A stretch of 64,000 bases of DNA. Origin: Thermoanaerobaculia bacterium. GTDB taxonomy: Bacteria; Acidobacteriota; Thermoanaerobaculia; Multivoradales; UBA5704. A model generated the notes under the pieces. The model saw nothing but the letters and a program-made list of their open reading frames with translations, had not been told where the DNA came from and did no database searches. Below, piece by piece: positions 4,140 to 27,036 of the stretch (positions are counted from its first letter, which is position 1; each line of letters opens with the position of its first letter). The DNA lies in NCBI GenBank assembly GCA_036275055.1, contig DASUEN010000083.1:19187-83186 (forward strand), read 5' to 3'. Position numbers and translations under genes: made by a program.

Positions 4140-5342
4140 GTGGCAGGGCTCGCCATGAAACCAGAAGAGAAGCAGAACGTCCTCGCGCTGGAAGCCCATC
4201 TCGGCACCGAGCTGCACCGGCGGTCCACGGAGCTGACCCGCGCCTGGCTCGACCGCCTGATCGCGCGGCTGGACGTCCATCCCCGCCGCATCTTTCCCAC
4301 CGACGCGCTGCTCAACCACATCCCCGAGGTGCTGCGGGCGATCTCCGACTACCTCTGCTCCGACGGCGACCTCGAGCACGAGGAGCTGCTGCGCACCGAG
4401 TTCGGCAAGCTGGCGCGGCTGCGGCGGGAGCAGGGGTACGACATCGACGAGATCCTGGCCGAGTTCGAGATCCTGGGCGAGATCCTCTACGACGCGCTGC
4501 GGGAAGAGGCCCGGCGCTTCGGGCGCAAAGTGCCCCCCGACTACGCCATCGAAGTGGCCGAGCGCCTCTTCCGGTCGCTGACGGCCATCACCACCATCAC
4601 GGCCACCACGTTTCGCGAGGAAGGGTTCCGCGACCGCCGGGACCGGGCGCGGCTCCTGGGCGGCTTCGGCCGCGAGCTGGCGCACGAGCTGCGCAACCGG
4701 CTGAGCACGGCCGAGGCGGCCCTCCACCTGCTGGGCAACGAGAGCCTCGAACCGGCCACGCGGGAGCGGACGCTGCGCACCCTGCGCAACACCCTGCAGC
4801 GGATCAAGGGCGTAGCGGACGACGTGCACTCGCTGGCCATCGCCCAGGGGAGCGAGGAGGGAGCGCAAGGAAGGAGGTTGTCGCTGCGCACCCTGCTCGA
4901 CGAGGTGGTCGAGGAGCTGCGGGGGATCGCGGACGAGAGCGCGGTGCGCATCGTGGTCCGCGAGCCCATCCCCGACGTGCAGGTGGACGCCATCCGGGTG
5001 GAGCTGGCGCTGATCAACCTGGTGGGCAACGCCGTCAAGTACTCCGACCCGCAGGAGGAGGACCGCTGGGTGCGCATTGCCGTCCAGCGGCACGAGGAGG
5101 GCTACTGGCGCCTCTCCGTCTCGGACAACGGCATGGGGATTCCGGACGAGATGCAGGACCGGGTCTTCGAGCAGTTCGTCCGCGCCCACCCCGGAGTCGC
5201 GGACGGCACCGGCCTGGGTCTCTCGATAGCCCGCTCCGCCATCGAGCAGATGGGAGGCCGCATCTGGCTCGAAAGCGAGCCGGGAGTCGGCACCACCTTC
5301 CACTTCACCGTGGTGGACCCGCCGGCGGCGCGGGAGGACTGA
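4140..5342 (+). CDS. Cytoplasmic sensor histidine kinase (no adjacent response regulator)
   Basis: H-box FGRELAHELRNRLST, N-box LINLVGNAVKYS, G-boxes SDNGMGIP and GTGLGLSIARSAIEQMGGRIWLESEPGVGTTFHF. No obvious transmembrane segment. Confidence 0.8.
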   Translation: MAGLAMKPEEKQNVLALEAHLGTELHRRSTELTRAWLDRLIARLDVHPRRIFPTDALLNHIPEVLRAISDYLCSDGDLEHEELLRTEFGKLARLRREQGYDIDEILAEFEILGEILYDALREEARRFGRKVPPDYAIEVAERLFRSLTAITTITATTFREEGFRDRRDRARLLGGFGRELAHELRNRLSTAEAALHLLGNESLEPATRERTLRTLRNTLQRIKGVADDVHSLAIAQGSEEGAQGRRLSLRTLLDEVVEELRGIADESAVRIVVREPIPDVQVDAIRVELALINLVGNAVKYSDPQEEDRWVRIAVQRHEEGYWRLSVSDNGMGIPDEMQDRVFEQFVRAHPGVADGTGLGLSIARSAIEQMGGRIWLESEPGVGTTFHFTVVDPPAARED

Positions 5343-5457
5343 GGTTGAAGCCTGTGGATCGCCGGACAAATCTTGCATGGCTACCCCGTCGGGGGTTGCT
5401 TTCCCCTGCCACTTCGCGCATGGTGGTAGAGGCATCGTCCCACGGGAGGACAAGATC

Positions 5458-5706
5458 ATGAGCGAAGAGCTGAAGACCTTTCTTCAGAGCCTCCGCACGA
5501 AACCTGAGCTGCTGGAGGAGCTGCGATCCTTGATTCGGGACCCGGACGCGGCGGTCCAGTGGGCTCGCGAGCAGGGATGTCACCTGACGCCGGAGGACGT
5601 CGCCGAGCTCCAGGGTGATGATGAGGAGCTCTCGGACGACGAGCTTGACAAGGTGGCTGGCGGCGACGACGGATGGCCGCCACCCCCGCCACCGCCGGGC
5701 CCTTAG
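5458..5706 (+). CDS. Nif11-like leader RiPP precursor, 82 aa, predicted core DDGWPPPPPPPGP
   Basis: ATG 5458 lies 7 nt after GGGAGGA. The N-terminus MSEELKTFLQSLRTKPELLEELRSL...AAVQWAREQGCHLTPEDV matches the Nif11-domain leader pattern. The leader ends ELSDDELDKVAGG (double-glycine site), followed by 13 residues and a stop. Confidence 0.75.
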   Translation: MSEELKTFLQSLRTKPELLEELRSLIRDPDAAVQWAREQGCHLTPEDVAELQGDDEELSDDELDKVAGGDDGWPPPPPPPGP

Positions 5707-5726
5707 GCTTCGTCGCGACGCAGGCA

Positions 5727-6749
5727 ATGGCATCCGTCCCATCCCCCGCCTATGACGACTGGCTGCGGGTGGTCAGACGGCATCTTACTCCGCCGCTTTG
5801 CAGTCTTTGGGCCCTGGATCGCCTGCACACTCTCGCCGCTCATCTCCCGGGAGATTGCCTGGGAGCCCTCGAAGCCCACCTGGGAAAGAGGGGCGGCGAC
5901 GTCGATCTGTCGATCCGTTTCACCGAGCCCGGCCAAGGCCGCCGAATGGCGGAGCAGCCCCTGCCCGCCCACCTGCGCAGCTTCCTCTCCCAATGGTCCC
6001 AGCCGGAAGGTCCGTTCTCCAGCATCCCCTGCATCTGGCTGGAGTTCGACCTGGATCGGCCGGTGGGGGACTTTCCGGTGCCATCGGTCTGCGCCCGGCT
6101 GCCGCGGGACGCCGACCTGGACTGGATCGTCGAGCTCTTGCTGCCGGCCCTGCATGGCGAGCCTCTGGGCGCAGCCCAGACCGGCCTGGTCCGGCGCTGC
6201 CACGGCGAAATCCCCGAGGAGGGCATCCTCCTCTACGTCTTCGGCCTGCTCTCCCGGCCGGGGAATCCGATACGGCTGGAGATCTTCGGGCTGGACCCGG
6301 CCGGCGCGGTTGCCTACCTGCGCCGCGTGGCGCCCCACGCCGCTCCTGCGCTGGCCGAGATCGCGCCGATCTTCGAAGGGATCGACAGGCCCCACCTGTC
6401 CCTCGACATGGGTGCTGAGATCCTGCCACGGGTGGGATTGGAAGGCTCCTTCGCCCGGCAGCGCGAACCCCGCTGGACGGAGCTCCTGGCCCGTCTCGTG
6501 GCCCGGGGCCTCTGTACGCGCGAGGAGATGGACGCCATCCTGGCCTGGCCGGGGTACGACACCCTCTGGACGGCTGCGGCGGACTGGCCCCTGGAGCAGG
6601 CCGGCGTGGGGGGATTCTGCGTGCGCAGCTTGAGCCACGTTAAAGTCGTCGCGCAACCGGGACGGGCGCCGGAGGCGAAGGTCTACTTGCTGGTCTCTTC
6701 TTTGGCCGGAGCCAAGTCGCCGGCAAGGCGGTCGGTCTTCTCGACGTAG
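5727..6749 (+). CDS. Hypothetical protein, candidate maturase of the Nif11 precursor (family not recognised)
   Basis: The ORF 5673..6749 has strong GC3 bias. Start placed at ATG 5727 (MASVPSPAYDDW), 21 nt after the precursor stop. I recognise no catalytic motif. See the finding on its repeated beta-hairpin/helix pattern. Confidence 0.55.
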   Translation: MASVPSPAYDDWLRVVRRHLTPPLCSLWALDRLHTLAAHLPGDCLGALEAHLGKRGGDVDLSIRFTEPGQGRRMAEQPLPAHLRSFLSQWSQPEGPFSSIPCIWLEFDLDRPVGDFPVPSVCARLPRDADLDWIVELLLPALHGEPLGAAQTGLVRRCHGEIPEEGILLYVFGLLSRPGNPIRLEIFGLDPAGAVAYLRRVAPHAAPALAEIAPIFEGIDRPHLSLDMGAEILPRVGLEGSFARQREPRWTELLARLVARGLCTREEMDAILAWPGYDTLWTAAADWPLEQAGVGGFCVRSLSHVKVVAQPGRAPEAKVYLLVSSLAGAKSPARRSVFST

Positions 6750-10045: not shown

Positions 10046-10154
10046 CAGTCGCCGTGCTCTTAGCAGTTAACGCCTAATCCTACACGCCAAAACGAAGCGT
10101 AGGAGAATTATACCCTTGGCCTTGCTCTGGAAGCCACGAATTTAGAACCAAGAA

Positions 10155-10185
10155 GTGGGCATTCGGCTACTCTCCTCATGCCCAC
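10155..10185 (-). terminator. Candidate intrinsic terminator downstream of the island precursor gene
   Basis: On the minus strand: GTGGGCAT, a 15-nt loop, ATGCCCAC, then TTCTTGGTTCT. It starts about 45 nt after the stop at 10231. Confidence 0.4.
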
Positions 10186-10230
10186 TATCTCCCGATGTGT
10201 GCAATAGCACGGCCTAATAACAGACAGTCA

Positions 10231-10443
10231 CTAGGTATCCCTAATGGAGTCAAACGCCTCCGACTGACCAATACCAGTTCTCTCAGGGTGGTCACAGTAC
10301 GTAATCACTCCTCCTCCTCCTCCATCTACTGGTTCCAGTTCCATACCCCCAGAAACGCCCTCAAGCGCCTCATCTGTCAACGGAGCCTGGAACAGTTCGT
10401 CATCAATGTTCTCCATCTTTGGATCCCTTGCCTCTAGCTCCAT
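10231..10443 (-). CDS. Double-glycine leader RiPP precursor (70 aa) of the ATP-grasp/SPASM island
   Basis: ATG at 10443 lies 6 nt after AAGGAG on the minus strand. The leader MELEARDPKMENIDDELFQAPLTDEALEGVSGG is followed by the core MELEPVDGGGGGVITYCDHPERTGIGQSEAFDSIRDT, which is rich in Thr/Ser and Asp/Glu (ATP-grasp cross-link partners) and has one Cys. Confidence 0.65.
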   Translation of the reverse strand: MELEARDPKMENIDDELFQAPLTDEALEGVSGGMELEPVDGGGGGVITYCDHPERTGIGQSEAFDSIRDT

Positions 10444-11046
10444 GAGTAACTCCTTTGCTCTGCGGCAGGTCCAATACCTGCGCACCTCCTACTCTAAGCC
10501 CCAGCGAACTCCCTGTCAATCCTAAAAAAGCGCTAAGGGAGGCGACCCGAGATCAGGACCTGCAAGACAGCGTTAAATATACTCTCATCGGAGATTTTTC
10601 GCCGTACTGGAAAACCTGCCACGAGCGTCGATCAACTCATCGGCCGGCTCGTCAGGAAAGCCGGCCGGAAACGCGTGCAGCACATCGGCGAAGGCCAGGC
10701 CTCCCCACCAAACGAAGCAAGCCAGCATCGCGGGGGAGCATTCCCCTGTCTTCTACTCTCTCTTGCTGCCACCTGAATCAGGACTACGGGGTGGAATTTG
10801 TCGAACTCGCTGAAGCCTCCTGCGGCGGCGAAGAGACTAAGACTGCTCACCAACTACTCCTCCGGTCTAGGGCCAGCATCGCCTCAGACACCAGGGTCGA
10901 CTCCTCGCGAGCCGTCAGGTCTATCGACTACGGGTAGTCTTAAACGCAAAGGGCAGAATGCCCTAGGCCCGCCGAAGCCTTGCCTCACCCCCAGGGGTGC
11001 ACGACTCCACGAGCCGCACGGTGGTGCGGATCACGGCTTTATGCTG

Positions 11047-11075
11047 TTGCCTGTACACGAATGTCCTAGTATGCT
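11047..11075 (+). promoter_or_regulatory. Candidate sigma70-type promoter upstream of the ATP-grasp gene
   Basis: TTGCCT (11047..11052), 17-nt spacer, TATGCT (11070..11075). This would give a 5' UTR of about 165 nt. Sequence match only. Confidence 0.25.
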
Positions 11076-11244
11076 ACGCTTATGTTCCGGAACTCACCGG
11101 CAGCACTGCTCCGGGAAAGTCAGCGTCTCGCTTTAGCACCGGCCACTGACTAGCCCCATGCCGGGTTCGGGATGGATTTACTTTAGCCAAGCAGGGCCGC
11201 TGTGATCGCCCGCAGCGTTCCGGCAAGGTCAATCCTGAGAGGAA

Positions 11245-12291
11245 ATGGCTACTATTATGTCACTGTATAATGCTCAAGAGGGCTCAATCCTAATTCTCAG
11301 CCAAGGTTCAGGAGAAACCACAACAGATATTGTCATGGAGTACCTGTTCCGCATGGGCCTATCGCCATTGCGCCTCAACGGAAGTGACCTTGATAGCCAG
11401 GGTAATTTTAGCATAGTTCTCAAGACGGGCGAAGCGGAGATAGATATCGAGGAATTCAAGGTTAATCTGCATCAGATTCAAGTAGTCTGGTTCCGCCGAT
11501 GGTCGGAGCGGCAGCCATTCCAAGGAATCAATATGCTTTCGGAAAATTCGCCAGAGAGTCACGATGTCTCCCAACGCGCCGCCGAACACCTTTCATCAGA
11601 ATTACGGAGGATCAGCTCTTTCCTTTTTTCCGAACTAAAACATGCAATATGGCTTAGCCACCCAAGCACTGCGAGCCCAGACAAGCTCAGAACATTAAAG
11701 CTTGCAGCAAGCGTCGGACTCTCAACACCCCACACATTAGTGACTACAAGCAGAAAACGGTTGCTACAATTCGCCCATCACCATCCCCTAATCACAAAGG
11801 CGATCGGTGATGTCGATTTTTTCCAGATAGGGTTCACCGCTCATCTAATGTACACCCAGGAACTTTCGGCAGACCTACTCGATGCACTTCCGGAAAAATT
11901 TTTCCCCTCATTATTTCAAGAAAAGCTAGAGAAACGGTATGAGCTAAGAATTTTCTACCTTGCCGGGAATTGCTATACATCAGCAATATTCTCGCAATCG
12001 GACCCCAAAACATCTATCGATTTTAGGAAATATAATCATAAAAAACCCAATAGGGTGGTGCCCTATAAATTAGAAGCTGACATGGAAGACAAAATTAGAC
12101 ACCTAATGGACTTATTAGAACTCGAAACAGGTTCACTCGATCTAATTAAGACAATCGACGGGCGCCTTGTCTTTCTCGAGGTTAACCCAATCGGCCAATT
12201 TGGGATGGTCTCTTCCCCTTGCAATTATCATCTAGAGCATAGGGTCGCCGAGTTCCTCGCGGAGAAAATCAACAATGCAAGACCTAGATAA
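11245..12291 (+). CDS. ATP-grasp ribosomal peptide maturase (grasp-with-spasm type)
   Basis: Matches to MdnC-like RiPP ATP-grasp ligases as I recall them: ILILSQGSGETTTDIVMEYL, DKLRTLKLAASVGLSTPHTLVTTS, FQEKLEKRYELRIFYLAGNCY, IDFRKYNHKKPNRVVPYKL, GSLDLIKTIDGRLVFLEVNPIGQFG. Confidence 0.85.
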   Translation: MATIMSLYNAQEGSILILSQGSGETTTDIVMEYLFRMGLSPLRLNGSDLDSQGNFSIVLKTGEAEIDIEEFKVNLHQIQVVWFRRWSERQPFQGINMLSENSPESHDVSQRAAEHLSSELRRISSFLFSELKHAIWLSHPSTASPDKLRTLKLAASVGLSTPHTLVTTSRKRLLQFAHHHPLITKAIGDVDFFQIGFTAHLMYTQELSADLLDALPEKFFPSLFQEKLEKRYELRIFYLAGNCYTSAIFSQSDPKTSIDFRKYNHKKPNRVVPYKLEADMEDKIRHLMDLLELETGSLDLIKTIDGRLVFLEVNPIGQFGMVSSPCNYHLEHRVAEFLAEKINNARPR

Positions 12292-13558
12292 TTTCCTAAG
12301 TCAACTGAAGGAAGATGCAAGTAATTGGACGCCTGTCTCCTTCCGGACAACGAGCAAATCGGAACTGGAAGCATTACCGCTGTCTCGTTATGCGGAGTCG
12401 ACGCGCTACAGATCGGCACAATACAGATGCTTCAACTTCCACAAGCCTATATCAAGAATTTTTAAAGCTATCCCTCGCATAAAAAGAGGAAGTGAACTCC
12501 CCGAAACAGAGCGCACCCGACCGACGATCAACTCGACAGCCCCAGTTACGGACGAGCAAATTTTTCTCCTCTTTGCGTGTTGTGTGCCTGTAATGGGAGC
12601 TCGCCGAAGCATAATCTGCGATCTTCAACGAGGCGCCTTCCAGTTGATACCTAACGGCTTAGCCGAGATCCTCAAGCAGTATAGAGGAAAGACTCTCGCC
12701 GCGATCAAAGACGCCTACAAGCACCAATACGATGCTCAAATTGAGCGATATTTTGAGTTCTTGATAGAACTTGAGCTTGGTTTCTGGTGCGACGATATCG
12801 ATGCTTTCTCCGAGATCGATTTTAGCTGGGACGAGCCGGAGCGTATAACTAATGCGCTCATTGATGTCGACGAGCGATCTGAGCACGACTTCGGTGTTAT
12901 CCTAAGAGATCTCGACGATCTAGGTTGTAAAGCGCTTCAGGTACGCTTTTATTCTGGCGGGCGAATTCTGCAACTCCGCGAACTACTTACGGCAGCCAAG
13001 GGTACCTGCTTGCGCTCAATTGAGCTAGTCGCACCATTTCACAGTGAAGACACCGATCAAGACTACATCCGGATGTACCTCGACTTTCCGCGCATCAGCC
13101 GCCTAATAATTCATTCCGCTCCCGATGATCGTGAACTCAAAACGGAACGCTCTCATGTACCGCTTATCTATAGAAGAATGATAATTGACTCCTCCTCTTG
13201 CTGCGGGGAGGTGCACCCCTCGTACTTCGTCACGCAGATCTCTACCTTTTCCGAGGCTCAAACCTTTAACACCTGCCTGAACCATAAGATTTCTATCGAT
13301 AGATGTGGAGAGATTAAAAATTGCCCCTCTTTACCGTACTCGTGTGGAAACATCCGGGACACTTCTCTACATAGTGCTTTAGCTCAGAGCGACTTCAAAC
13401 AACTGTGGGCTATAAATAAAGACCAAATCGAGATATGTAAGGATTGTGAGTTTCGGTATATCTGCGTCGATTGCCGGGCATACTTATCACGCCCGGAAGA
13501 TCGCTTCTCAAAGCCTGCGAAGTGTACTTATGATCCGTATTCTGCCCAATGGCGATAA
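12275..13558 (+). CDS. SPASM-domain peptide maturase partner of the ATP-grasp enzyme, lacking a canonical radical-SAM CX3CX2C motif
   Basis: The ATG overlaps the ATP-grasp stop by 17 nt. The C-terminal Cys-rich SPASM pattern is CLNHKISIDRCGEIKNCPSLPYSCGNI ... ICKDCEFRYICVDCRAY ... KCTYDPY. The N-terminal half has only ACCVPVMGARRSIIC. Confidence 0.8.
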   Translation: MQDLDNFLSQLKEDASNWTPVSFRTTSKSELEALPLSRYAESTRYRSAQYRCFNFHKPISRIFKAIPRIKRGSELPETERTRPTINSTAPVTDEQIFLLFACCVPVMGARRSIICDLQRGAFQLIPNGLAEILKQYRGKTLAAIKDAYKHQYDAQIERYFEFLIELELGFWCDDIDAFSEIDFSWDEPERITNALIDVDERSEHDFGVILRDLDDLGCKALQVRFYSGGRILQLRELLTAAKGTCLRSIELVAPFHSEDTDQDYIRMYLDFPRISRLIIHSAPDDRELKTERSHVPLIYRRMIIDSSSCCGEVHPSYFVTQISTFSEAQTFNTCLNHKISIDRCGEIKNCPSLPYSCGNIRDTSLHSALAQSDFKQLWAINKDQIEICKDCEFRYICVDCRAYLSRPEDRFSKPAKCTYDPYSAQWR

Positions 13559-13821
13559 ATGTAAACTCGACCTTCCTCAACGTCGGCGGTGCTTACAACC
13601 AATACAGCCGTTTAAGTAATTTGTAGACAGAGCGGAGCGGCGATCTCGCAGCCACCGAGTGACAGAAACAGAGAGGCTTTTCCAGCCCAAACAGTGCCCG
13701 ATCGATGCAGAGCCAAATGAACCTATCCTCGAGACGATCAAGCTGGGTCAGACCCTGGCACGCAACAATTGCTTGGCCAAACCGCTCGCTGGAAAGCAGT
13801 CTGCGTCCAGCGTCGATGAGG

Positions 13822-14436
13822 CTACGTCACCATAATCTTTTTCACCATTCTGCCGAACCGCTCCCCCGCCAGGTAGACGCCGTCGAACACGTTCGCGTCC
13901 AGCTCATCGGCGTCATATTCCTCCTCCTCACCGTCCACAACCACCCCTGTGCCAAGGTCGCGGTGCAGCTCCCGGACCGTCGCCCTTGGAGAGCGCGAAA
14001 ACCGTCGAGTCCTCCAGGGCTTTGACCGTGGCGGAGGGGGCCCGGGCGTCCACGAAGGACATCTCGTCCACGATCTCGCCGGCGTTGAGGCGGGCGAGCT
14101 CCCTCTCCGGTCCCCGGTGGGGCCGGAGGGAGACGGCCAGCCTTCCTTCCAGCAGGATGAAGACGGAGTCCACCGGCACGCCCTGCTCGATGAGGGCGCC
14201 TCCCGCGGGGACGAACCGCTTCTGGCCAGCGCGGAGCATCCACTCCCCTGCTCGGTGACCCGTCCTCCCTTGATGACGTAGATGCGGTCGGCGTTCTGGA
14301 TGGTGCTCAGGCGGTGGGCGATGACGATGCGTGTAGCCTTCAGGCGCTCCAGTTTGCGGCTGACGATCTCCTGGGTACGGTTGTCGAGGGCGCTCTCGTG
14401 GCCTCGTCGAAGAGAAGGATGCGCGGTCGGTGCACG
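13822..14436 (-). pseudogene. Decayed duplicate of the exporter operon 3' end (cNMP-binding protein plus C-terminus of the second ABC ATPase)
   Basis: Collinear nucleotide similarity to 20085..20895 with two internal deletions. Translated fragments: DGVYLAGERFGRMVKKIMVT, MLRAGQKRFVPAGGALIEQGVPVDSVFILLEGRLAVSLRP...LARLNAGEIVDEMSFVDARAPSATV, and NRTQEIVSRKLERLKATRIVIAHRLSTIQNADRIYVIKGGRVTEQG. The fragments lie in different frames. Confidence 0.75.
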
Positions 14437-17487: not shown

Positions 17488-17701
17488 GCCCAAGGATGCG
17501 AACCTGGAGATCGAGGCCCTTTCCGACGACGAGCTCGAGTCAGTCAGCGGAGGCAATACCACCACCAACTCGGGCGGCACCTGCACCACCAACGCGGGCG
17601 GCGTCTGCAGCACCGCTATCAACGGCGGCTGCACCACCAACACGGGTGGCACCTGCACCAACCTCCCAGCCCAACCCGCACAACAACTGAACGCCGACTG
17701 A
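17480..17701 (+). CDS. RiPP precursor, 73 aa, double-glycine leader plus Thr/Cys/Asn/Gly-rich core
   Basis: Leader MSKPKDANLEIEALSDDELESVSGG, then core NTTTNSGGTCTTNAGGVCSTAINGGCTTNTGGTCTNLPAQPAQQLNAD. The ATG overlaps the LanB-like stop by 8 nt. Confidence 0.75.
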   Translation: MSKPKDANLEIEALSDDELESVSGGNTTTNSGGTCTTNAGGVCSTAINGGCTTNTGGTCTNLPAQPAQQLNAD

Positions 17702-19011: not shown

Positions 19012-20088
19012 TGGCGCCTCACCTCTCTTCGGCGGCAACTCGACGAACGCGGAGAGCGCCGGTGGAAGCAGGGCGCGGAGGGCCTCTGCCGGTTCCTCGG
19101 AAAACCCTCGCGGCCCCCTTTCCCCGATCCAGGAGAGGTCTTCCTCGCCGCGGCTCAGCACCTCCTGGAGGGTCACTGTCAGGAGGCGGCTCAGGTAGAG
19201 CTCTTCCGCGTTGCTGAGCCCGAGACGGCTTGCCGTCATATGGAGGTGGCTCCCCCCCGTCCTCGCACGGGCGACGCGGTCGCCGGTTCCTTTCGCTTCC
19301 GAGAGACGGCCAGAGCCCGCCGCGAGGAGCTCCGCCGCGGACGCTGGAGGCTCGTTCTCCGCCTGCACGGAACGTACCCTGGCCAAACTTTCGCGGAAGA
19401 GCCGCAGGAAAAGCTCCCTTTGGGATACTGCGACCCGGTCGGCCTTCTCCACGACTTTCGACGCCCCTTCGCTCCACGAATCTACGCCATACCTCAGCAG
19501 ATCGAGTAATTCGGCTTCGTCAGCCGCGAAACCGAGGGCTTGCTGGAGCAAAAGGAGGAACGCTTGCGCGAGTAGAACCGAACGCGACGCGTCCCCATGC
19601 TTCGCCAGAAGCTCGATGGCCGCCACGCTCGATAGCGTGAAGACATCGAGAGAAGAGCGAAACAGGCCCGGGCCTCCGTAGCGTTCGACCTCGGGGCGAA
19701 ACGGTACCACCTGCAACGAGTTGTCCGGATAGATTGAGGTGTCGATCTCGTGGGGGTCGCCCGCCAGGATGTACTCGTTCGATCGCTGGATCACCTCTTC
19801 AGCCAGCGACTTTGTCGAAGGGGTCAGGTCGAAAAAGTCTCGTGCCAATCGTTGAACCTCTGCGAGCACGTGGTCTCTGAAGCCAGGACGAGCTCTCAGC
19901 CGCAGACGGACGTGAGGCCCACCCAGTGCATAGCGCACGAAGAAGAAAGCCTCGATCTGATCAGCCTTTACGAGAGAGATCACCACCGGATGGACAACGC
20001 CTCTCACGACGCGATCCGGGTCCTCGTGATAGTAGAGATGGCAGGAGATCCAGCGCTCCTGGACCTCGTCGAAGGGCTGGTCGGTCAC
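19003..20088 (-). CDS. LanB C-terminal (SpaB_C, thiopeptide-type) glutamate-elimination domain protein
   Basis: WISCHLYYHED...IEAFFFVRYALGGPHVRLRLRARPG is the signature opening of SpaB_C/thiopeptide-type bacteriocin biosynthesis domains. The GTG start overlaps the upstream stop (GTGA). Confidence 0.75.
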   Translation of the reverse strand: MTDQPFDEVQERWISCHLYYHEDPDRVVRGVVHPVVISLVKADQIEAFFFVRYALGGPHVRLRLRARPGFRDHVLAEVQRLARDFFDLTPSTKSLAEEVIQRSNEYILAGDPHEIDTSIYPDNSLQVVPFRPEVERYGGPGLFRSSLDVFTLSSVAAIELLAKHGDASRSVLLAQAFLLLLQQALGFAADEAELLDLLRYGVDSWSEGASKVVEKADRVAVSQRELFLRLFRESLARVRSVQAENEPPASAAELLAAGSGRLSEAKGTGDRVARARTGGSHLHMTASRLGLSNAEELYLSRLLTVTLQEVLSRGEEDLSWIGERGPRGFSEEPAEALRALLPPALSAFVELPPKRGEAPSA

Positions 20089-20627
20089 GTCACCATCACC
20101 CGCTTCACCATCCGGTCGAACCGCTCCCCTGCCAGGTAGACGCCGTCGAGCACGTTCGAGTCCAGCTCGTCGTCGTCCTCCTCGTCCTCACCCATGGCCG
20201 CCCCGGTGCCAAGGTCGCGGTGACGCTCGCGGACGGTGGTGGAGAGGTAGATCGCCAAAGCCCGGTAGAACCGCGCCGCGAAGCCCTGGTCCGCCGCCAG
20301 CTTGGCGTTGAGGGTGGCCTTGGCGAGGGCGAAGACAGTGGAGTCCTCGGCGGCGCGGACGGTGGCGGAGGGGGGCCGGGCGTCGACGAAGGACATTTCG
20401 CCTACGATCTCGCCGGCGTTGAGGCGGGCGAGCTCCCTTTCCGCTCCCCGCCGGGGGCGGAGGGAGACGGCGAGCCTTCCTTCCAGCAGGATGAAGACGG
20501 AGTCGACCGGCACCCCCTGCTCAATGAGGATGCCGCCGGCCGGGACGAACCGCTTCTGGCCGGCGCGGAGCATCCACTCGACGTCATCGTCGTTGAGCTG
20601 GCCGAAGAGGAAGAGGACTTTGCGCAT
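20085..20627 (-). CDS. Stand-alone cyclic nucleotide-binding domain protein
   Basis: cNMP-binding beta-barrel pattern GGILIEQGVPVDSVFILLEGRLAV...AGEIVGEMSFVDARPPSATVRA. Acidic linker, then a short C-terminal tail. Confidence 0.8.
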   Translation of the reverse strand: MRKVLFLFGQLNDDDVEWMLRAGQKRFVPAGGILIEQGVPVDSVFILLEGRLAVSLRPRRGAERELARLNAGEIVGEMSFVDARPPSATVRAAEDSTVFALAKATLNAKLAADQGFAARFYRALAIYLSTTVRERHRDLGTGAAMGEDEEDDDELDSNVLDGVYLAGERFDRMVKRVMVT

Positions 20628-20637
20628 GTTTGACTCC

Positions 20638-23532
20638 TCAGGCGATCTGCCTTTCGGCGAGACGGGCGAAGGGACCGTTGCTCCGCAGCAGCTCCTGGAA
20701 GGTGCCCTGCTCAGCGACCCTGCCGCCTTCGATGACGTAGATGCGGTCGGCGTTCTGGATGGTGCTCAGGCGGTGGGCGATGACGATCCGCGTCGCTTTC
20801 AGGCTCTCCAGGCTGTGGCTGACGATCTCCTGGGTGCGGTTGTCGAGGGCGCTGGTGGCCTCGTCGAAGAGGAGGATGCGCGGCCGGTGGACGATGGCGC
20901 GGGCGATCAGGATGCGCTGCTTCTGGCCGCCGGAGAAAGTCTCGGCCCCCTCGCTCACCACGGTGTGCATCCCCATGGGCATGGCCTTGACGTCATCCTC
21001 CAGCCCGGCGGCCCGCGCCGCCTCCCAGGCGTCGTCGATCCCCAAGTTGGCGCTCCCTACGATATTGGAGAAGATGCTCCCCGCCATAGGGCGGCCGCTT
21101 TGGAGGACGACACCGATCTGCCGCCGCACGGACTGCACGGCGAGCCCCGCCAGGTCCTGGCCGTCGAAGTAGATGGAGCCCGCAGTCGGCTTCTCGAAGC
21201 CGAGGATGAGGCGCAGGCAGGTGGACTTGCCCGCGCCCGAGGGCCCCACCAGGGCGATGAACTCGCCGGGGCCGGCGCGGAAGGAAACGTCGTCCAGCAC
21301 TAGGGGCGTCTCCTCGTGATAGCGGAAGGAGACGTGGCTGAACTCGATCTCCCCTGAAAGCTCGCCCGGCTCGGACTTCGACTCGTCCACCTCGGGCACG
21401 GTCTCCAGGATCGGTCGCAGGCGCTCATAGACTGGCACCGCGGCGAGCACGCTCGAGAAGACCGAGACCACAGACAGCGCCGCCGACAGGAACTGGCCGA
21501 AAGCGGCGTTGAAGGCCAGAAACTCGCCCAGGGGAAGGGACTCGTTCGAAACGAAACCCACCATGGCGAAGACGCCGAGCGAGGTGAGGACGCCGTAGAC
21601 CGCGTTGAACGCCGTCTGCGCGTTGGCGGCCCGCTGAGCCGCGAGGGTGCGGCGGCGCTGCTCGGCGAAACGCTCGGCCCAGCGGGCATAGGCCCGGGAC
21701 TCGGCGCCCGCCACCCGCAGCTTGGCGATGCCGTGAATGAGGCCGAAGAGGAGGCTCGCGATGCGCCCTTGGACCTCCAGGATGGCCCGCTGATGGCGGA
21801 GTTGGAGCCAGACGAGGACGGCCGTCACCACCACCAGGATCAACACCATGCCGGTGGCGAGAAGAGCGAGCCGCCAACTGTAGTAATAGAGCAGCGCGAA
21901 GCTGAAAACCGAGAAGACCGTCGCCAGGGCGAGGGAGAGGACATTGCCCGTGAGCAGGTCGCGGATGGTGTCGATCCCCAGTGCGCGGTTGGCCAGGTCG
22001 CCCACGGTGAAGCGCCGGAAGAAAGTGACGGGCAGGGCCAGCAGCCGGTCCCACACCGCGGACTGGACGGCGCCGTCCACCTTTCCCCCGAGGCGCAGGA
22101 CGGCGAGGCTGCGGATCACCTGGAAGATCGCTCCCGCCACCGAGGTGACGATCAGGGCCAGGGTGATCTGGAGCAGTTGGCTGCGGTCCGCCCCGGGGAT
22201 GACGCTGCCGAAGACCTGCCCCGTGAGGACCGGCACCAGGAGCCCCAGGAGCCCGCCGGCCAGCCCCATGAGAACGATCGTGGCAAGGTCGCGGCGGCGG
22301 CCCGCGAAGGCCATGCGCGCGAGGTCGCCCATTCCCACCGGCCGCGCCGGTAGGGGCGGATAGAGCATGTGGGCGTCGCCGCTCAAGGTCTCGGAGACGG
22401 CTTCGTCGACGCTCACCCGCGTCCCCGCCGCCGGATCGGCCAGCACGTAGCTCTGGGGCGAGGTAGGGAGGAGGGCGACGGGGCGGCGGGCCTTAGGGTC
22501 GTCCGGCGGGATCTGGAAGGCGACCAGAGGACCGTTGTCGCGGCGCCACCAGTCGTCGCGCAAGATCACCCGGCGGGAGCGGATCCGCGACGCGTTGCAA
22601 ATCTGCACCAGGAGGTCGCCCTGCTTGCCGGCGGGTTGCCCCTCCGGCCGGTCGCGGATCTCGATCCCCTGGGCCTCCCCCACCAGCCGGACGGCGGCGA
22701 GGATGGGAGAGGACTCCGCCGCCAGGGCGGCACCGGCCCGCGAAGACGCTTCGAGGACGGAGGCGAGCCGGGCGTAGGCACCGCGCAGCACGGAGCGGTC
22801 GAGGTCCCGCCTGCGCCCCAGGCGCTCACGTTCGAGCCCCTCCCCTTTCTCGCGGTCATAGGCAACGGCTTCGAGGCAGAGCTCGTGAAAGCGGGCGATC
22901 CCTGCCCAGAGCGCCCCATCCCGCAGCGCCTCGGCCGTACCGCAGGAGGTGAGCCGGGCCTCGCCGGCCGCCACCAGCCAGACGTCCTCGGGCACGGGAA
23001 AGAGCTCGCCCCCCTCGATCCCCAGCCGCTCGTCTCCCAGCAGGTACGTGCGCCCCTCCAGGTGCCGTACCCAGACGACGCCATCCCGGCTCCGGGCCAG
23101 CCGCCCCGGCTCCAGGCGGGTCTCCTCACCGGGGCGCAAACTCTCGAAGTTGCGCGGGAACGCGGGCCGTACCAGGCCGCCGCCGAGCCCCGCGAGCCAG
23201 GCGTCGAACTGGCCGGCCAGGCCGGGGATGTCAGCCGCCAGCAGCCGGCGCAGGCGCGTGCCGGGCGCTCCTACGGCGAGGAGCCCCAGGCCGTGGCCGC
23301 TTGCCGCCGCGGGCTCGAAGCCGCAAAGGATGCCGTCGGCGGAGACCGTGGAGAGATGGATGCGGGGGCCGGTTTCGCCTTGGGGAACGGCGAATACCTC
23401 GGCCATCCCCTCTTCGACGAGCCAGATCTCGCCGCCGGCGTCGAGGGGCAAGGGCGCGTTGCTGGCAATGGGAATGTCTGCGGGGGCGGGCTCTCCCGCC
23501 AGGACCGGCTGCGGCTCGGATGGGCTCGCCAT
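20638..23532 (-). CDS. NHLP/Nif11-type bacteriocin export ABC transporter, permease/ATPase subunit with N-terminal cNMP-binding-like domains (no peptidase)
   Basis: Walker A GPSGAGKST, signature FSGGQKQR, Walker B ILLFDEATSALD. Six-helix TMD. An N-terminal region of about 300 aa has beta-barrel-like repeats (IWLVEEGMAEVFAV...). Start taken at ATG 23532 (MASPSEPQP), 4 nt after the upstream stop. Confidence 0.85.
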   Translation of the reverse strand: MASPSEPQPVLAGEPAPADIPIASNAPLPLDAGGEIWLVEEGMAEVFAVPQGETGPRIHLSTVSADGILCGFEPAAASGHGLGLLAVGAPGTRLRRLLAADIPGLAGQFDAWLAGLGGGLVRPAFPRNFESLRPGEETRLEPGRLARSRDGVVWVRHLEGRTYLLGDERLGIEGGELFPVPEDVWLVAAGEARLTSCGTAEALRDGALWAGIARFHELCLEAVAYDREKGEGLERERLGRRRDLDRSVLRGAYARLASVLEASSRAGAALAAESSPILAAVRLVGEAQGIEIRDRPEGQPAGKQGDLLVQICNASRIRSRRVILRDDWWRRDNGPLVAFQIPPDDPKARRPVALLPTSPQSYVLADPAAGTRVSVDEAVSETLSGDAHMLYPPLPARPVGMGDLARMAFAGRRRDLATIVLMGLAGGLLGLLVPVLTGQVFGSVIPGADRSQLLQITLALIVTSVAGAIFQVIRSLAVLRLGGKVDGAVQSAVWDRLLALPVTFFRRFTVGDLANRALGIDTIRDLLTGNVLSLALATVFSVFSFALLYYYSWRLALLATGMVLILVVVTAVLVWLQLRHQRAILEVQGRIASLLFGLIHGIAKLRVAGAESRAYARWAERFAEQRRRTLAAQRAANAQTAFNAVYGVLTSLGVFAMVGFVSNESLPLGEFLAFNAAFGQFLSAALSVVSVFSSVLAAVPVYERLRPILETVPEVDESKSEPGELSGEIEFSHVSFRYHEETPLVLDDVSFRAGPGEFIALVGPSGAGKSTCLRLILGFEKPTAGSIYFDGQDLAGLAVQSVRRQIGVVLQSGRPMAGSIFSNIVGSANLGIDDAWEAARAAGLEDDVKAMPMGMHTVVSEGAETFSGGQKQRILIARAIVHRPRILLFDEATSALDNRTQEIVSHSLESLKATRIVIAHRLSTIQNADRIYVIEGGRVAEQGTFQELLRSNGPFARLAERQIA

Positions 23533-23536
23533 GGCC

Positions 23537-25753
23537 TCATTCAGTGCTGATAAGCCGGGAGTAGGGGCCTTCGACGACCCGAAGCTGGTCGTGGGTGCCG
23601 CGCTGCACCACCTTGCCGTGGTCGAGGACGAGGATCTCGTCCGCATCGCGAATGGTGCTCAGGCGGTGGGCGATGAGGAGGCAGGTGCAGCCGCGGCGGC
23701 GCAGGCGCTCGTCGATCTGGCTCTCGGTGGAGGGGTCGAGGGCGCTCGTCGCCTCGTCGAGGACGAGGATCGAGGGCCTCCCTACCAGGGCGCGGGCGAT
23801 CTCCAGGCGCTGGCGCTGGCCGCCGCTCCAGTTGGCCCCTCCCTCCTCGACCGGGCTGTCGTAGCCCCCCGGGCGGGCCGCCACGTCCTCGTGGATGGAA
23901 GCGTCCTTGGCCGCGGCCACCACTTCGGGCAGGGGAACGGTGGAGTCCCAGAGGGTCAGGTTCTCCCGCACGGTCCCCTCGAAGAGGAAGACGTTCTGAT
24001 CGACCGTGGCGAGCGAGCTCGCCAGCACCGCGGGCGGGATCGCCGAGCGCGGCTGGCCGTCGAAAAGGATCTCCCCCTCCCACGGCTGGTAGAGGCCGGT
24101 GACCAGGCGGGCGAGCGTCGACTTGCCGCTTCCCGAGCCCCCCACCAGGGCGACGCGGGAGCCGGGCTTGAGCGTCAGGCAAAGCCCCTCGACGAGCGGC
24201 GGATCGAGCCGGCTGTAACCGAAGGAGACTTGGCGCAGCTCCAGGCTGCCGGCGAGCTTGACGGCCTCTCCCTCCGCCGGCATCTCGTCGTCGAGCCCGG
24301 CCGCGGCGCCGGGGTCGATGCGGTAGCGCAGGACGTCGTCCAGCCGGTTCATGTCCCCCTCGACCGTTTGCAGCTTGCCGCCGAGGCTCACCAGCCGGGT
24401 GACCGGAGCGATGAAGGCGGCCATCAGGAGCTGGTAGGCCACCAGGCCGCCCACGGAGAGCGAACCGCTCATCACCCGCACACCGCCGATCCCCAGGATC
24501 AGCGCCGAGTTGATCGCCGACAGCAGGCCCGGCCCGGCGTCGAGAAGTTGGGTGTAGCGTTCGAGCTCCTGCCGGCCGTTGACCACCTTGGCCTGGTAGC
24601 CGGCCCAACGGGAGAAGAGGTCGGACTCACCGCCCGTGGCCTTCAAGGTCTCGATGGTCTGCAAGCCGCCGATGGCCGTGCCCAGCAGCTTCCCCTGGTC
24701 CTGCACGAGGCGGCGGTTGCCGTCCACCCGCCGGCGCGAGACGTACTTCAAAGCCGCCACGTTGAGCGACACCACGGCGATTCCCACCAGGGTCAGCACC
24801 ACGTCGTACTGGAAGAGGAGCACGGCGAAGAAGGCGATCATCACGGCGCCCAAGGCGTTGGTCGCCAGATCGCGTGACAGGAGCTGGGCCACGCGGTCGT
24901 TGATCGCCACCCGCGAGCTGACGTCCCCCGCGAAGCGCTGGCTGAAGAACTCCGAGGGAAGGCGCAGCACGTGCCAGAGGAACCGGGACGAGCCCCCTAC
25001 CGCCATACGGGTCTCCAGACGCAGGAGATAGCTCTGCTGCAACCAGGTGAGGGCCCCCAGCAGCACGGCGGCGGCGCCCATGGCGAGGAGCAGCGGCGGC
25101 AGCCACTCGCGATGCCCTTCCAAGAGGACGCTATCGAGGAAGACCTTGGAGAAGACCGGCACCACCATCCCCGGAATGGCGAGCGCCAGGCCGGCGAGCA
25201 CCACGAAGACCAGGGCAGCCTTGGTGCCGGCCAGGCGGCTCTTCAACGCCGGGACGAGGCTCGGCGGGTCGCCCCGCTTCGCGAACTCGGGACCAGGCGA
25301 AAACGTCAGCACGACACCGGTGAAGGCCTGGTCCAGCTCTTCCTCGGTGACCGTCCGCGGCCCGGTGCCGGGGTCGTTGAGATAGACCCGCCCTTTGCGG
25401 ATACCCTCCAATACTACGAAGTGGTTGAAGTTCCAGTGCAGGATCATGGGGGGATGGACGGCACGCAGCGACTGGGGCTCCCGCTTGTAGCCCTTGGCTT
25501 CGAGGCCGTAGGTGCGGGCGGCCTTGACCATGTTGCTCGCCTTGCTGCCGTCGCGCGAGACGCCGCAGGCCACCCGCAGCTCTTCGAGCGGCACCCAGCG
25601 GCCATAGTGGGCGAGGACGATGGCGAGCGCCGCCGCGCCGCACTCGACGGCCTCCATCTGCAGGACGGTGGGGGTCCGCACCCGCGCCTTGGGCCGCTCT
25701 GCCGGCGGGCGCTGCCGGCGGAATTTCTCCTGGAGGCTGGCCAGGAACGGCAT
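23537..25753 (-). CDS. NHLP/Nif11-type bacteriocin export ABC transporter with N-terminal C39 peptidase domain
   Basis: C39 catalytic-Cys region VLQMEAVECGAAALAIVLAHYG plus HWNFNHFVVLEG. Walker A GGSGSGKST, signature WSGGQRQR, Walker B ILVLDEATSALD. Confidence 0.9.
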   Translation of the reverse strand: MPFLASLQEKFRRQRPPAERPKARVRTPTVLQMEAVECGAAALAIVLAHYGRWVPLEELRVACGVSRDGSKASNMVKAARTYGLEAKGYKREPQSLRAVHPPMILHWNFNHFVVLEGIRKGRVYLNDPGTGPRTVTEEELDQAFTGVVLTFSPGPEFAKRGDPPSLVPALKSRLAGTKAALVFVVLAGLALAIPGMVVPVFSKVFLDSVLLEGHREWLPPLLLAMGAAAVLLGALTWLQQSYLLRLETRMAVGGSSRFLWHVLRLPSEFFSQRFAGDVSSRVAINDRVAQLLSRDLATNALGAVMIAFFAVLLFQYDVVLTLVGIAVVSLNVAALKYVSRRRVDGNRRLVQDQGKLLGTAIGGLQTIETLKATGGESDLFSRWAGYQAKVVNGRQELERYTQLLDAGPGLLSAINSALILGIGGVRVMSGSLSVGGLVAYQLLMAAFIAPVTRLVSLGGKLQTVEGDMNRLDDVLRYRIDPGAAAGLDDEMPAEGEAVKLAGSLELRQVSFGYSRLDPPLVEGLCLTLKPGSRVALVGGSGSGKSTLARLVTGLYQPWEGEILFDGQPRSAIPPAVLASSLATVDQNVFLFEGTVRENLTLWDSTVPLPEVVAAAKDASIHEDVAARPGGYDSPVEEGGANWSGGQRQRLEIARALVGRPSILVLDEATSALDPSTESQIDERLRRRGCTCLLIAHRLSTIRDADEILVLDHGKVVQRGTHDQLRVVEGPYSRLISTE

Positions 25754-27036
25754 CAGATCCCCAGCTTCTCCCGCAGCGTGGGGATGACGAGGGCGATAGG
25801 GCGGTCCTGCTTCACCACCACGTCGCCCGCCGCCAGGGTGCCGCTGCTGATCTTGAGGCTCGGCCCCCGCGAGGAGGACCAGCGGTATCCCGTGGGGGTT
25901 TTGACGTCGCGGCGCAAGGCGACGTTGATCTGGATGGGCGGCCCCTCGGTCATCAGCTTGGTGACCAACGCCTCGTTGCCCAGCAGGCGCGTCATACCGC
26001 GGGCCGAGGAAGGGAACTCCGCCACCCAGACCACCCGTCCCAGGATGGAGCCGAACTCCTCCCGTTTGACGGTGCTGGGCGTCACCTGCACCGCCATCCC
26101 CGGCTGTACCTGCTTCCCCGCCGAGGCCGGGACGAAGAGCACGGCCATCAGGTCCTCGGAGAGCACCTCGACGGAGAGCACCGGGGAGCCGGGCGTCACC
26201 ACGTTGCCGCGGTTGGCCAGGACCTCCAGCACGCGCCCGGCGAAGGGGGAGAGGACGTTGACGTTCTCTCCGAGCTGGGCACTGAGCTCACGGGTCTGGA
26301 GGTCCAGGTCGCGCAGCGTGGTCTGCCGCGCCTCGAGCTGCTGGTCGAGCGCTTGGTCGGCCTCCAGGCGCTTGAGCTCCAGGCCGCTCAGGTCGAGCTT
26401 CTGCTGGGCGAGCTGGTCGCGCTTGGCGTTCAGGTCCTGCTGGGTGGTGAGGTAGGTCTGCTTGGTGATCAGGCCGTCGTCGAGCAGGCTCTTGCCGGCG
26501 GCCACCCGCTCCTGGAGGAGGGCCACGTCCTTCTGCAGGGCGTCGATGCTCCGCTCGAGATTGGCCCGCTGCAGGGCGAGGTCCCGGGCCCGCAGCCGCT
26601 TCTGCTCGTCCGAGGAACGTTGGAGAGACAGGTACTCCGATTGCAGGGCCGTCTGCTTGGCTTTGTTGTCCCGGATCTGGCGGATCAGCGAGTCCTGGCG
26701 GATCCTCGCCACGGGCTGCCCCTTGGCGATGACGTCCCCGACGCTCACCAGCACCTCCGCCACTTGGCCGCTGGCAGGGGAGACGAGGTCGGAAACTCCC
26801 CCCTGGCGCAGCAGGATCCCCTCGCCGTGCGCCTGGGTGGGGATCGTCCCCCAGATCCCCCAGGCGAGGGCGGCCAGGAGCAGGGCGCCGAGGCCGCTCA
26901 GCGAAAGCCAGCCACGCGGATCGGTAACCTGCACCAGTTGATCGAGCTGCTCGGGAGAGGAGAGCCTCTCCAGTGCCACTTTGCGGAAGATCACGGCCTG
27001 CGCTCCTCCACGACGGGGGGCAGGGTGATGAGCCAC
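25753..27036 (-). CDS. HlyD-family periplasmic adaptor of the bacteriocin exporter
   Basis: FRKVALERLSSPEQLDQL opening, single TM, long coiled-coil (QSEYLSLQRSSDEQKRL...), beta-barrel C-terminus. One-base TGATG junction with the ABC gene. Confidence 0.85.
   Translation of the reverse strand: MAHHPAPRRGGAQAVIFRKVALERLSSPEQLDQLVQVTDPRGWLSLSGLGALLLAALAWGIWGTIPTQAHGEGILLRQGGVSDLVSPASGQVAEVLVSVGDVIAKGQPVARIRQDSLIRQIRDNKAKQTALQSEYLSLQRSSDEQKRLRARDLALQRANLERSIDALQKDVALLQERVAAGKSLLDDGLITKQTYLTTQQDLNAKRDQLAQQKLDLSGLELKRLEADQALDQQLEARQTTLRDLDLQTRELSAQLGENVNVLSPFAGRVLEVLANRGNVVTPGSPVLSVEVLSEDLMAVLFVPASAGKQVQPGMAVQVTPSTVKREEFGSILGRVVWVAEFPSSARGMTRLLGNEALVTKLMTEGPPIQINVALRRDVKTPTGYRWSSSRGPSLKISSGTLAAGDVVVKQDRPIALVIPTLREKLGI

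Follow-up and report, generated by a model that had tools for sequence, protein, structure and literature searches.

MppC is an alpha-beta-beta-alpha (ABBA) prenyltransferase from a lanthipeptide cluster of Moorena producens that geranylates C5 of a Trp in the precursor MppE, whose leader (...ELSDSELEAVAGG) is followed by the core ACWRWSG; its activity depends on the Nif11 leader in full, an L(X)4L motif included, and MppC-like sequences cluster apart from the cyanobactin enzymes and are often found beside Nif11 precursors (Wakeel, McShan and Agarwal, JACS 2025, PMC12715784). NctPC (Hubrich et al., Chem 2024), as described in PMC13290415 and PMC13647313, is an ABBA prenyltransferase-cyclase fusion that adds a geranylgeranyl chain to a peptide Trp and then cyclises that chain. 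Reports of Nif11 peptides prenylated in a leader-dependent manner date only from 2024-2025 and concern macrocyclic lanthipeptides alone. Here we analyse a locus from a Thermoanaerobaculia bacterium in which a gene for a Nif11-leader precursor with a short, single-Trp, proline-rich core is followed directly by a gene for an ABBA-fold prenyltransferase homologue. The locus lies in a stretch of 64,000 nucleotides (contig DASUEN010000083.1, positions 19,187 to 83,186), which we call the window and to which all coordinates refer unless a locus is named. We consider it probable that positions 5458..6749 form a two-gene cassette for a ribosomally made peptide that is modified after translation (RiPP), the product being a linear 13-mer that is prenylated on its Trp, cleaved after a double glycine and exported. 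An initial annotation of this DNA had singled out the precursor; the genes consistently linked with it, namely the transferase gene, a cyclase-AAA-TPR gene and an NHLP/Nif11 export system, were absent from that annotation.

Results

The precursor open reading frame (ORF; 5458..5706, + strand) runs from an ATG at 5458 to a TAG at 5704-5706 and encodes an 82-residue product whose C-terminus reads ...ELSDDELDKVAGG/DDGWPPPPPPPGP, the slash marking the boundary between leader and core. It had been read initially as a Nif11-leader precursor with a VAGG site followed by only 13 residues, and this reading holds: the product scores 51.4 bits against the hidden Markov model (HMM) TIGR03798 leader_Nif11 (cutoff 32.3) and 29.4 bits against Pfam Nif11 PF07862 (cutoff 23.8), the double glycine is invariant in 32 aligned precursors, and a 13-residue core follows VAGG. 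The leader has a structured N-terminal part; its acidic stretch contains L58(X)4L63 and precedes the VAGG double-glycine cleavage motif, so that the leader end and the first core residue read ...EELSDDELDKVAGG/D. The core consists of eight Pro, two residues each of Asp and Gly, and a single Trp; it lacks Cys, Ser and Thr and has a calculated mass of 1324.609 Da when unmodified.

A protein search with the precursor returned 31 homologues, and about 90 precursor homologues are known to us in all, nearly all of them from metagenome-assembled genomes (MAGs) of Thermoanaerobaculia or other Acidobacteriota. Among seven close relatives of the precursor, substitutions at codon positions 1, 2 and 3 number 329, 302 and 700, a coding signature because of which we take the frame to be translated. 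The seven consecutive Pro codons (5677-5697) are mixed, as had been noted at the outset, reading CCG CCA CCC CCG CCA CCG CCG; a slippage artefact or a spurious ORF is ruled out by the homologue alignment and by the codon-position substitution pattern, and these sequence comparisons confirm the precursor as a real gene rather than a chance ORF of a GC-rich genome. A promoter and terminator scan of 3.3-10.3 kb gave nothing exceeding shuffled expectation, and no promoter can therefore be assigned to the 115-nt spacer between the precursor and the kinase gene upstream of it. The features of the locus and of the export operon are collected in Table 1.

Table 1. Features of the predicted cassette, its neighbours and the export operon (window coordinates)
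Feature	Position	Strand	Basis or remark
Shine-Dalgarno-like GGAGG	5445..5449	+	8 nt before the precursor ATG; read directly from the sequence
Nif11-type leader, 69 residues	5458..5664	+	TIGR03798 and Pfam Nif11 matches
Core DDGWPPPPPPPGP and stop codon	5665..5706	+	Trp codon 5674-5676, predicted prenylation site
ABBA-fold prenyltransferase homologue, MppC/NctP-like, 340 residues	5727..6749	+	20 nt after the precursor stop
Double zinc ribbon/class III nucleotidyl cyclase/AAA_16 (STAND)/TPR protein, 1120 residues	6683..10045	-	Pfam domains
Soluble histidine kinase, membership doubtful	4140..5342	+	Pfam RsbRD_N (sensor domain), HisKA, HATPase_c
Gene for 180 residues with cyclic-nucleotide-binding region, candidate 'bacteriocin-type transport-associated' protein	20085..20627	-	Last gene of the exporter operon
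NHLP/Nif11 export ABC transporter subunit 2 (ABC2)	20638..23646	-	TIGR03797, 938 bits, cutoff 709
NHLP/Nif11 export ABC transporter with N-terminal C39 peptidase (ABC1)	23537..25753	-	TIGR03796, 1107 bits, cutoff 853
HlyD-type adaptor of the NHLP export system	25753..27036	-	TIGR03794, 369 bits, cutoff 156

The alignment of 32 precursor sequences has no substitution at L63, A67, G68, G69, D70 or W73, and conservation of at least 90% at L58. When the comparison is widened to 75 distinct cores (from 90 precursors), Trp is found at core position 1-4 after the double glycine in 74 of them, preceded mainly by Asp, Ala, Thr or Gly, and apart from this Trp no core residue is conserved. The emphasis that the initial annotation had placed on the Trp is thus borne out; its suggestion that orthologues be checked for a core of Trp followed by prolines finds the Trp conserved and the Pro run not kept family-wide. 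Among the closest relatives, PPPP after the Trp is nearly invariant (PPP(P)), and across the family the run gives way to Gly/Thr-rich tails or shrinks to 2-3 residues, the post-Trp tails being 1-23 residues long and consisting of 40% P, 32% G and 14% T (examples of cores are AWPPP, DGWPPA, DTAWPPPPTPPTEGG, DWGDGTGT... and WDGNGGGGG). Judged by these alignments, the hepta-proline is one variant of a drifting low-complexity Pro/Gly/Thr tail, and selection appears to keep the Trp together with its short, fixed spacing from the leader. This spacing fits an enzyme that, once docked to the leader, has an indole within reach.

The transferase gene, which is presumably co-transcribed with the precursor, encodes a protein with no Pfam or NCBIfam match (for Pfam, with E-values of up to 10 allowed); a profile built from it recovered no prenyltransferase among PDB sequences, only a chance match at E 0.47. 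Its 279 homologues are all without a name or annotated 'hypothetical', and their contigs pair one-to-one with the contigs of precursor homologues. An AlphaFold2 model built from 60 homologues (predicted local distance difference test score 93.7, predicted TM-score 0.91) displays ten strands in alpha-beta-beta-alpha repeats, and the best 50 Foldseek matches of this model in the PDB are all ABBA aromatic prenyltransferases, with E-values down to 5.6e-8 and a probability of 1.00. They include the indole-specific enzymes AmbP1, AmbP3, FamD1, IptA, PriB, CymD and DMATS, the cyanobactin peptide prenyltransferases LimF, PatF and PagF, and NphB/Orf2. The model therefore predicts an ABBA-barrel fold for the transferase.

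To link this family to a characterised enzyme, we turned to a Moorena locus chosen through an 87%-identical MppE homologue. Its genes are ordered LanM, two arginase-like genes, precursor, a 375-residue gene without Pfam match, a terpene-synthase-like gene and a Trp halogenase, which agrees with the published mpp cluster, and it is because of this gene order and the published cluster description that we take the 375-residue gene, at the mppC position, as the MppC orthologue. The transferase-family HMM scores this mppC-position gene at 138 bits, BLASTP aligns 263 residues of it with the window transferase at 29% identity (E 6e-27), and the two proteins have the motifs WLEFD, HxKVV and KxYL in common; a second Moorena locus (L061) holds a disrupted copy of the gene. 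The family is placed only through predicted structure and this literature bridge. An exhaustive profile search at E up to 1e-3 yields 3,359 family representatives (50%-identity clusters). Members P0251, P0283, P0288 and P0265, P0280, P0286, all annotated only as 'hypothetical protein' and P0283 coming from an Acidobacteriota MAG, are fused to squalene-hopene-cyclase-like or CMAS-like S-adenosylmethionine-dependent methyltransferase domains; by their domain content, these fusions would point to peptide-bound prenyl groups that are cyclised or methylated. Prenylation, which had been mentioned initially only as an example of a mass shift to look for, is with an MppC-family ABBA homologue next to the precursor the best-supported modification, as a prediction from sequence.

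Across genomes, the transferase profile led to 59 loci, 57 of which come from Thermoanaerobaculia, Holophagales or other Acidobacteriota MAGs. In essentially all of these 57 acidobacterial loci a Nif11-leader precursor lies beside the transferase homologue, mostly ending about 10-50 nt upstream of it (downstream in L012, L019 and L033). This linkage bears on the possibility that an ordinary double-glycine bacteriocin-like peptide is exported, carrying either no modification or one other than prenylation, and that the ABBA-fold protein has a small-molecule aromatic substrate or acts in immunity or as a chaperone. The fold match is moderate, the transferase family has no curated annotation and no isoprenoid supply gene was seen nearby, all of which would suit such a reading; we nevertheless regard it as very unlikely, since the transferase and a Trp-core precursor go strictly together in 57 loci in which the other core residues vary, since the transferase has a homologue in the gene that occupies the place of a characterised peptide Trp prenyltransferase and has family members fused to terpene-cyclase-like domains, and since the 13-mer has no obvious activity without a lipid.

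A small group of related loci (L042, L044, L045 and L050) have cores of the pattern WCG[DN]xxTTG. Directly 5' of the L044 cassette there is a LanM gene (L044 4525-7686, TIGR03897, 677 bits), the only LanM confirmed in the 59-locus set, and L042, L045 and L050 have a large LanC-like gene at the LanM position upstream of the precursor. The products of these four loci are, as far as gene content goes, probably prenylated class II lanthipeptides of Acidobacteria, and their cores, taken together with LanM, indicate that lanthipeptide-type and linear substrates coexist in one enzyme clade. The four sister-cassette cores read WCGDETTTG, WCGNELTTG, WCGDATTTG and WCGNETTIG.

One may then ask whether the window precursor itself belongs to a lanthipeptide pathway, or to the LanB-like/JmjC/elimination-domain module at 14.7-20.1 kb, with prenylation as just one of several modifications. 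The characterised relatives of the transferase do act on lanthipeptides, and in 12-13 loci LanB-like and JmjC genes are found close to the cassette. L011 and L015 have no cyclase gene, and the next gene 3' of the transferase gene on its strand encodes a JmjC protein in L011 (after a gap of ~70 nt) and a LanB-like protein in L015. Such a pathway is nonetheless highly improbable for the window, where the core offers no Ser, Thr or Cys for dehydration or cyclisation and where the LanB-like module, rejected as acting on the 5458..5706 precursor, has a Thr/Cys-rich double-glycine-leader precursor of its own (~17480-17701); moreover, the loci with an upstream LanM or LanC-like gene, L042, L044, L045 and L050, have cores that contain Cys and Thr. 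Hydroxylation of Pro, Asp or Trp of the window peptide by a JmjC enzyme is conceivable, and for some Trp-core peptides of other loci a JmjC oxygenase could be a second tailoring enzyme.

The most constant neighbour of the predicted two-gene cassette is the cyclase-AAA-TPR gene, which lies downstream of the transferase gene in ~50-52 of the 59 loci. In the window the two genes are convergent and their 3' ends overlap by 67 nt (6683-6749); many related loci, among them L001, L002 and L003, show a comparable 3' overlap, again tens of nucleotides long. The best NCBIfam match of the protein is TIGR03903 TOMM_kin_cyc, at 296 bits, which is below the cutoff and does not include the kinase part.

An NHLP/Nif11 export system with a C39 ATP-binding cassette (ABC) transporter is present in the neighbourhood, with TIGR03796, TIGR03797 and TIGR03794 all matched above their cutoffs. 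The operon spans 20.1-28.5 kb and comprises the cyclic-nucleotide-binding-like gene, ABC2, ABC1, HlyD and an OEP gene. ABC1, which also matches Pfam Peptidase_C39 at 123.5 bits, is predicted to be both the double-glycine leader protease and the exporter, in common with the other double-glycine-leader precursors of the window. The cyclic-nucleotide-binding assignment of the gene at 20085..20627 was made not by a scan of its own but through a near-identical degenerate partial copy at 13928-14239, which scores 56.9 bits against TIGR03896 cyc_nuc_ocin, below the curated cutoff of 161. The longest ORF of ABC2 has ~310 residues N-terminal of the TIGR03797 match with no family match covering them; either the true start is internal or the extension is an unannotated domain. 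A DUF7005 protein (28555-29712, + strand, 477 bits) is encoded beside the operon, and a DUF7005 gene is also found in the Moorena mpp-type cluster (L060 18364-19533); DUF7005 may be a recurrent uncharacterised component of Nif11/NHLP loci.

In several loci exporter and cyclase genes are contiguous. The order along the strand in L007, L016, L042 and L045 is ABC2, cyclic-nucleotide-binding-like gene, cyclase gene, with ABC1 visible upstream in L007, and in L012, L019 and L054 ABC2 is the direct neighbour of the cyclase gene, L054 having ABC1 upstream as well; the NHLP/Nif11 exporter operon of these loci thus ends with the cyclase gene. Two insertions, a low-GC island and the LanB-like/JmjC module, part the window operon from the cyclase gene. 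The cyclase-AAA-TPR protein is probably a regulator of the locus or of the exporter.

The kinase gene lies 115 nt upstream of the precursor in the same orientation. It had been described initially as looking cytoplasmic, which made a link to ComX weak, and both points stand: no hydrophobic segment was found in the kinase sequence (4140..5342), and, of the loci fetched, just 21 have the gene beside the cassette, these belonging to a single subclade with WPP cores. In 20 of these 21 loci its identity, 74-89%, is higher than that of the transferase (43% in L004), a pattern more suggestive of gene order kept by descent than of a receptor gene. The kinase was considered as a dedicated receptor and rejected, its linkage being confined to the one subclade.

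ComX pherotypes have a single modified Trp in an otherwise variable peptide. The product of the window locus might likewise be a ComX-like quorum-sensing pheromone, sensed by the adjacent kinase or, after re-import, by the TPR domain of the cyclase-STAND protein, with the cyclic nucleotide feeding back on the cyclic-nucleotide-binding protein associated with the exporter. This proposal agrees with a Trp-prenylated, exported 13-mer as far as the chemistry is concerned and differs in biological role alone. It gains from the short peptide with one Trp, predicted to be modified, and no other conserved core residue, from the signalling genes on either side (the kinase 115 nt upstream and the cyclase-AAA-TPR gene in ~50 of 59 loci) and from the candidate cyclic-nucleotide-binding protein between exporter and cyclase in several loci. 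We think it unlikely all the same: the kinase lacks a membrane segment, is limited to the 21 loci of one subclade and is more conserved than the cassette, no response regulator gene adjoins the cassette, and the enzyme is not ComQ-like. In addition, the closest curated model of the cyclase, TIGR03903, is named for a thiazole/oxazole-modified RiPP (TOMM) system; cyclase-STAND proteins mark bacteriocin-type RiPP loci generally, and the presence of one therefore does not imply that the peptide is its ligand.

The resemblance to ComX-type pheromone loci that had been suggested initially does not extend to the enzyme, which is predicted to have the ABBA fold and not the ComQ-like isoprenyl-diphosphate-synthase fold; against polyprenyl-synthase Pfam models the transferase gave no match even at E up to 10. 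A ComQXPA-type quorum-sensing system in the strict sense was rejected, as it fails on the ComQ-type enzyme, the membrane receptor kinase and the response regulator gene. A more specific form of the signalling idea would have the linear Trp-prenylated peptide as a ComX-like acidobacterial signal and ligand of the TPR-STAND cyclase, the cyclic nucleotide gating the NHLP exporter through the cyclic-nucleotide-binding partner. We judge this form distinctly unlikely; if true, it would be a convergent, previously undescribed peptide-to-cAMP (cyclic AMP) quorum-sensing circuit. To our knowledge, no peptide signalling is known in the phylum Acidobacteria.

Two further RiPP modules lie between the cyclase gene and the exporter operon. 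The low-GC island (10100-13800, GC 0.44-0.59 against ~0.68 in its flanks) carries a grasp-with-spasm RiPP system with an ATP-grasp gene (11245-12291, TIGR04192, 268 bits), a SPASM maturase gene (12275-13558, TIGR04193, 320 bits) and a double-glycine-leader ORF (10231-10485, - strand) ending ...LTDEALEGVSGG/MELEPVDGGGGGVITYCDHPERTGIGQSEAFDSIRDT, and the island looks like an insertion that separates the cyclase gene from the genes on the exporter side. The second module has a short-leader double-glycine precursor at ~17480-17701 (+ strand; MSKPKDANLEIEALSDDELESVSGG/NTTTNSGGTCTTNAGGVCSTAINGGCTTNTGGTCTNLPAQPAQQLNAD) with a repetitive Thr/Cys-rich core, flanked by a 939-residue LanB-like gene (14668-17487, no family match) and a JmjC gene (17767-19011), and a Lant_dehydr_C/thiopeptide-type protein is encoded at 19003-20088 (- strand). 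A degenerate partial direct copy of 20087-20853, the segment that contains the cyclic-nucleotide-binding gene and the 3' end of ABC2, is found at 13824-14394 (76-89% identical, with indels), and since the two copies bracket the LanB-like/JmjC module, the sequence suggests that the module arrived through duplicative rearrangement.

Discussion

We propose that the MppC/NctP-family transferase would bind the precursor through its Nif11 leader and, with a prenyl diphosphate as donor, attach an isoprenyl group to the indole of Trp73, four residues past the Gly-Gly. The C39-peptidase ABC transporter would then cut after VAGG and export the product, a linear, acidic-headed and proline-tailed lipopeptide that may be written DDG-W(prenyl)-PPPPPPPGP, and the cyclase-AAA-TPR protein, together with the candidate cyclic-nucleotide-binding protein, probably regulate production or export through a cyclic nucleotide. 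In this scheme we infer the prenyl transfer, with its donor length, indole position and dependence on the leader, and likewise where cleavage occurs, that the cyclase acts as a regulator, and any signal or membrane-active role of the peptide.

Several observations weigh against this proposal. MppC favours a lanthionine-cyclised core and the window core has no Cys, Ser or Thr, so that the substrate rules must differ from those of MppC. The Foldseek matches have moderate TM-scores of 0.42-0.55 with root-mean-square deviations of 7-10 Å, and identity to solved prenyltransferases is 9-16%. The Moorena gene used for comparison is an orthologue by position and comes from a strain other than the source of the published MppC, and no W...F pair fitting the published W336/F340 was found in the protein that it encodes. 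There is no prenyl-diphosphate synthase among the ~30 scanned window ORFs. A distance of 13 kb separates the window exporter from the cassette, two other double-glycine-leader precursors share this exporter, and the correlation between cyclase divergence and transferase divergence (r = 0.72) is explicable by shared species phylogeny alone.

If the prediction holds, the cassette represents a minimal form of leader-dependent Nif11-peptide prenylation, with one leader, one Trp and one enzyme, and the transferase would offer a compact biocatalyst, guided by the leader, for the lipidation of linear peptides. Small prenylated peptides would then be made by at least ~57 MAGs of Thermoanaerobaculia and Holophagales, a largely uncultured soil lineage, and a testable function is proposed for a Pfam-less family of ~3,400 representatives at 50% identity. 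The constant pairing of a cyclase-STAND protein with an exporter linked to a cyclic-nucleotide-binding gene offers a handle on the regulation of RiPP export or on a signal role. In a literature search that was incomplete, we found no paper on linear, Trp-only Nif11 cores with such enzymes, nor on acidobacterial systems of this kind.

Among known systems, the cyanobactin F-family enzymes (PagF, KgpF, AcyF, LimF and PatF) have the ABBA fold and prenylate side chains of ribosomal peptides, including Trp. They are, however, leader-independent, act after proteolysis and macrocyclisation and belong to clusters with PatA/PatG proteases, and no subtilisin-like protease gene is present in the window cassette. 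Membership of the window transferase in the PatF/PagF family was rejected, as there is no Pfam match at E up to 10 and no prenyltransferase among PDB sequences, the fold alone being shared. ComX/ComQ of Bacillus and PalQ of Paenibacillus resemble the locus in that a short exported peptide with a single prenylated Trp is encoded alongside signalling genes. They differ in that ComQ and PalQ are trans-isoprenyl-diphosphate-synthase-like whereas the window enzyme has a predicted ABBA fold, in that the ComX leader is not of the Nif11 type whereas the window leader is, and in that ComP is a membrane kinase whereas the window kinase is soluble and only loosely linked.

For NctPC and 'steromaze', the two sources given above describe an ABBA barrel of low similarity to cyanobactin enzymes that alkylates Trp in a ribosomal peptide, and the family of the window transferase includes prenyltransferase-cyclase fusions of the NctPC architecture, a comparison that was made with the published description of NctPC. 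By that description, NctPC is a fusion to a class II terpene cyclase, uses geranylgeranyl diphosphate and gives a polycyclic isoprenoid product, whereas the window enzyme is a stand-alone 340-residue domain.

With MppE/MppC the window locus has in common a Nif11 leader of the form ELSDxEL...AGG with L(X)4L and a double glycine, a short Trp-containing core and an ABBA gene directly downstream. The Trp stands at core position 5 in MppE and at position 4 in the window. The mpp cluster carries arginases, a halogenase and a terpene synthase, which the window cassette lacks, and the window host belongs to the Acidobacteriota, whereas the dominant phyla of the MppC network are Cyanobacteriota, Myxococcota and Pseudomonadota (PMC12715784). 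The substrates differ as well: MppC acts on a LanM-cyclised core and prefers the macrocycle, whereas the window locus has no LanM and its core no Cys, Ser or Thr, and the window substrate must therefore be linear. By predicted fold, sequence homology and gene arrangement, the window enzyme would be a member of the MppC/NctP-like family; since the lanthionine-cyclised substrate is missing, the locus is a variant and not a plain member of that family. The cassette is best viewed as a LanM-less variant of a recently described RiPP class, with its chemistry and role predicted from sequence.

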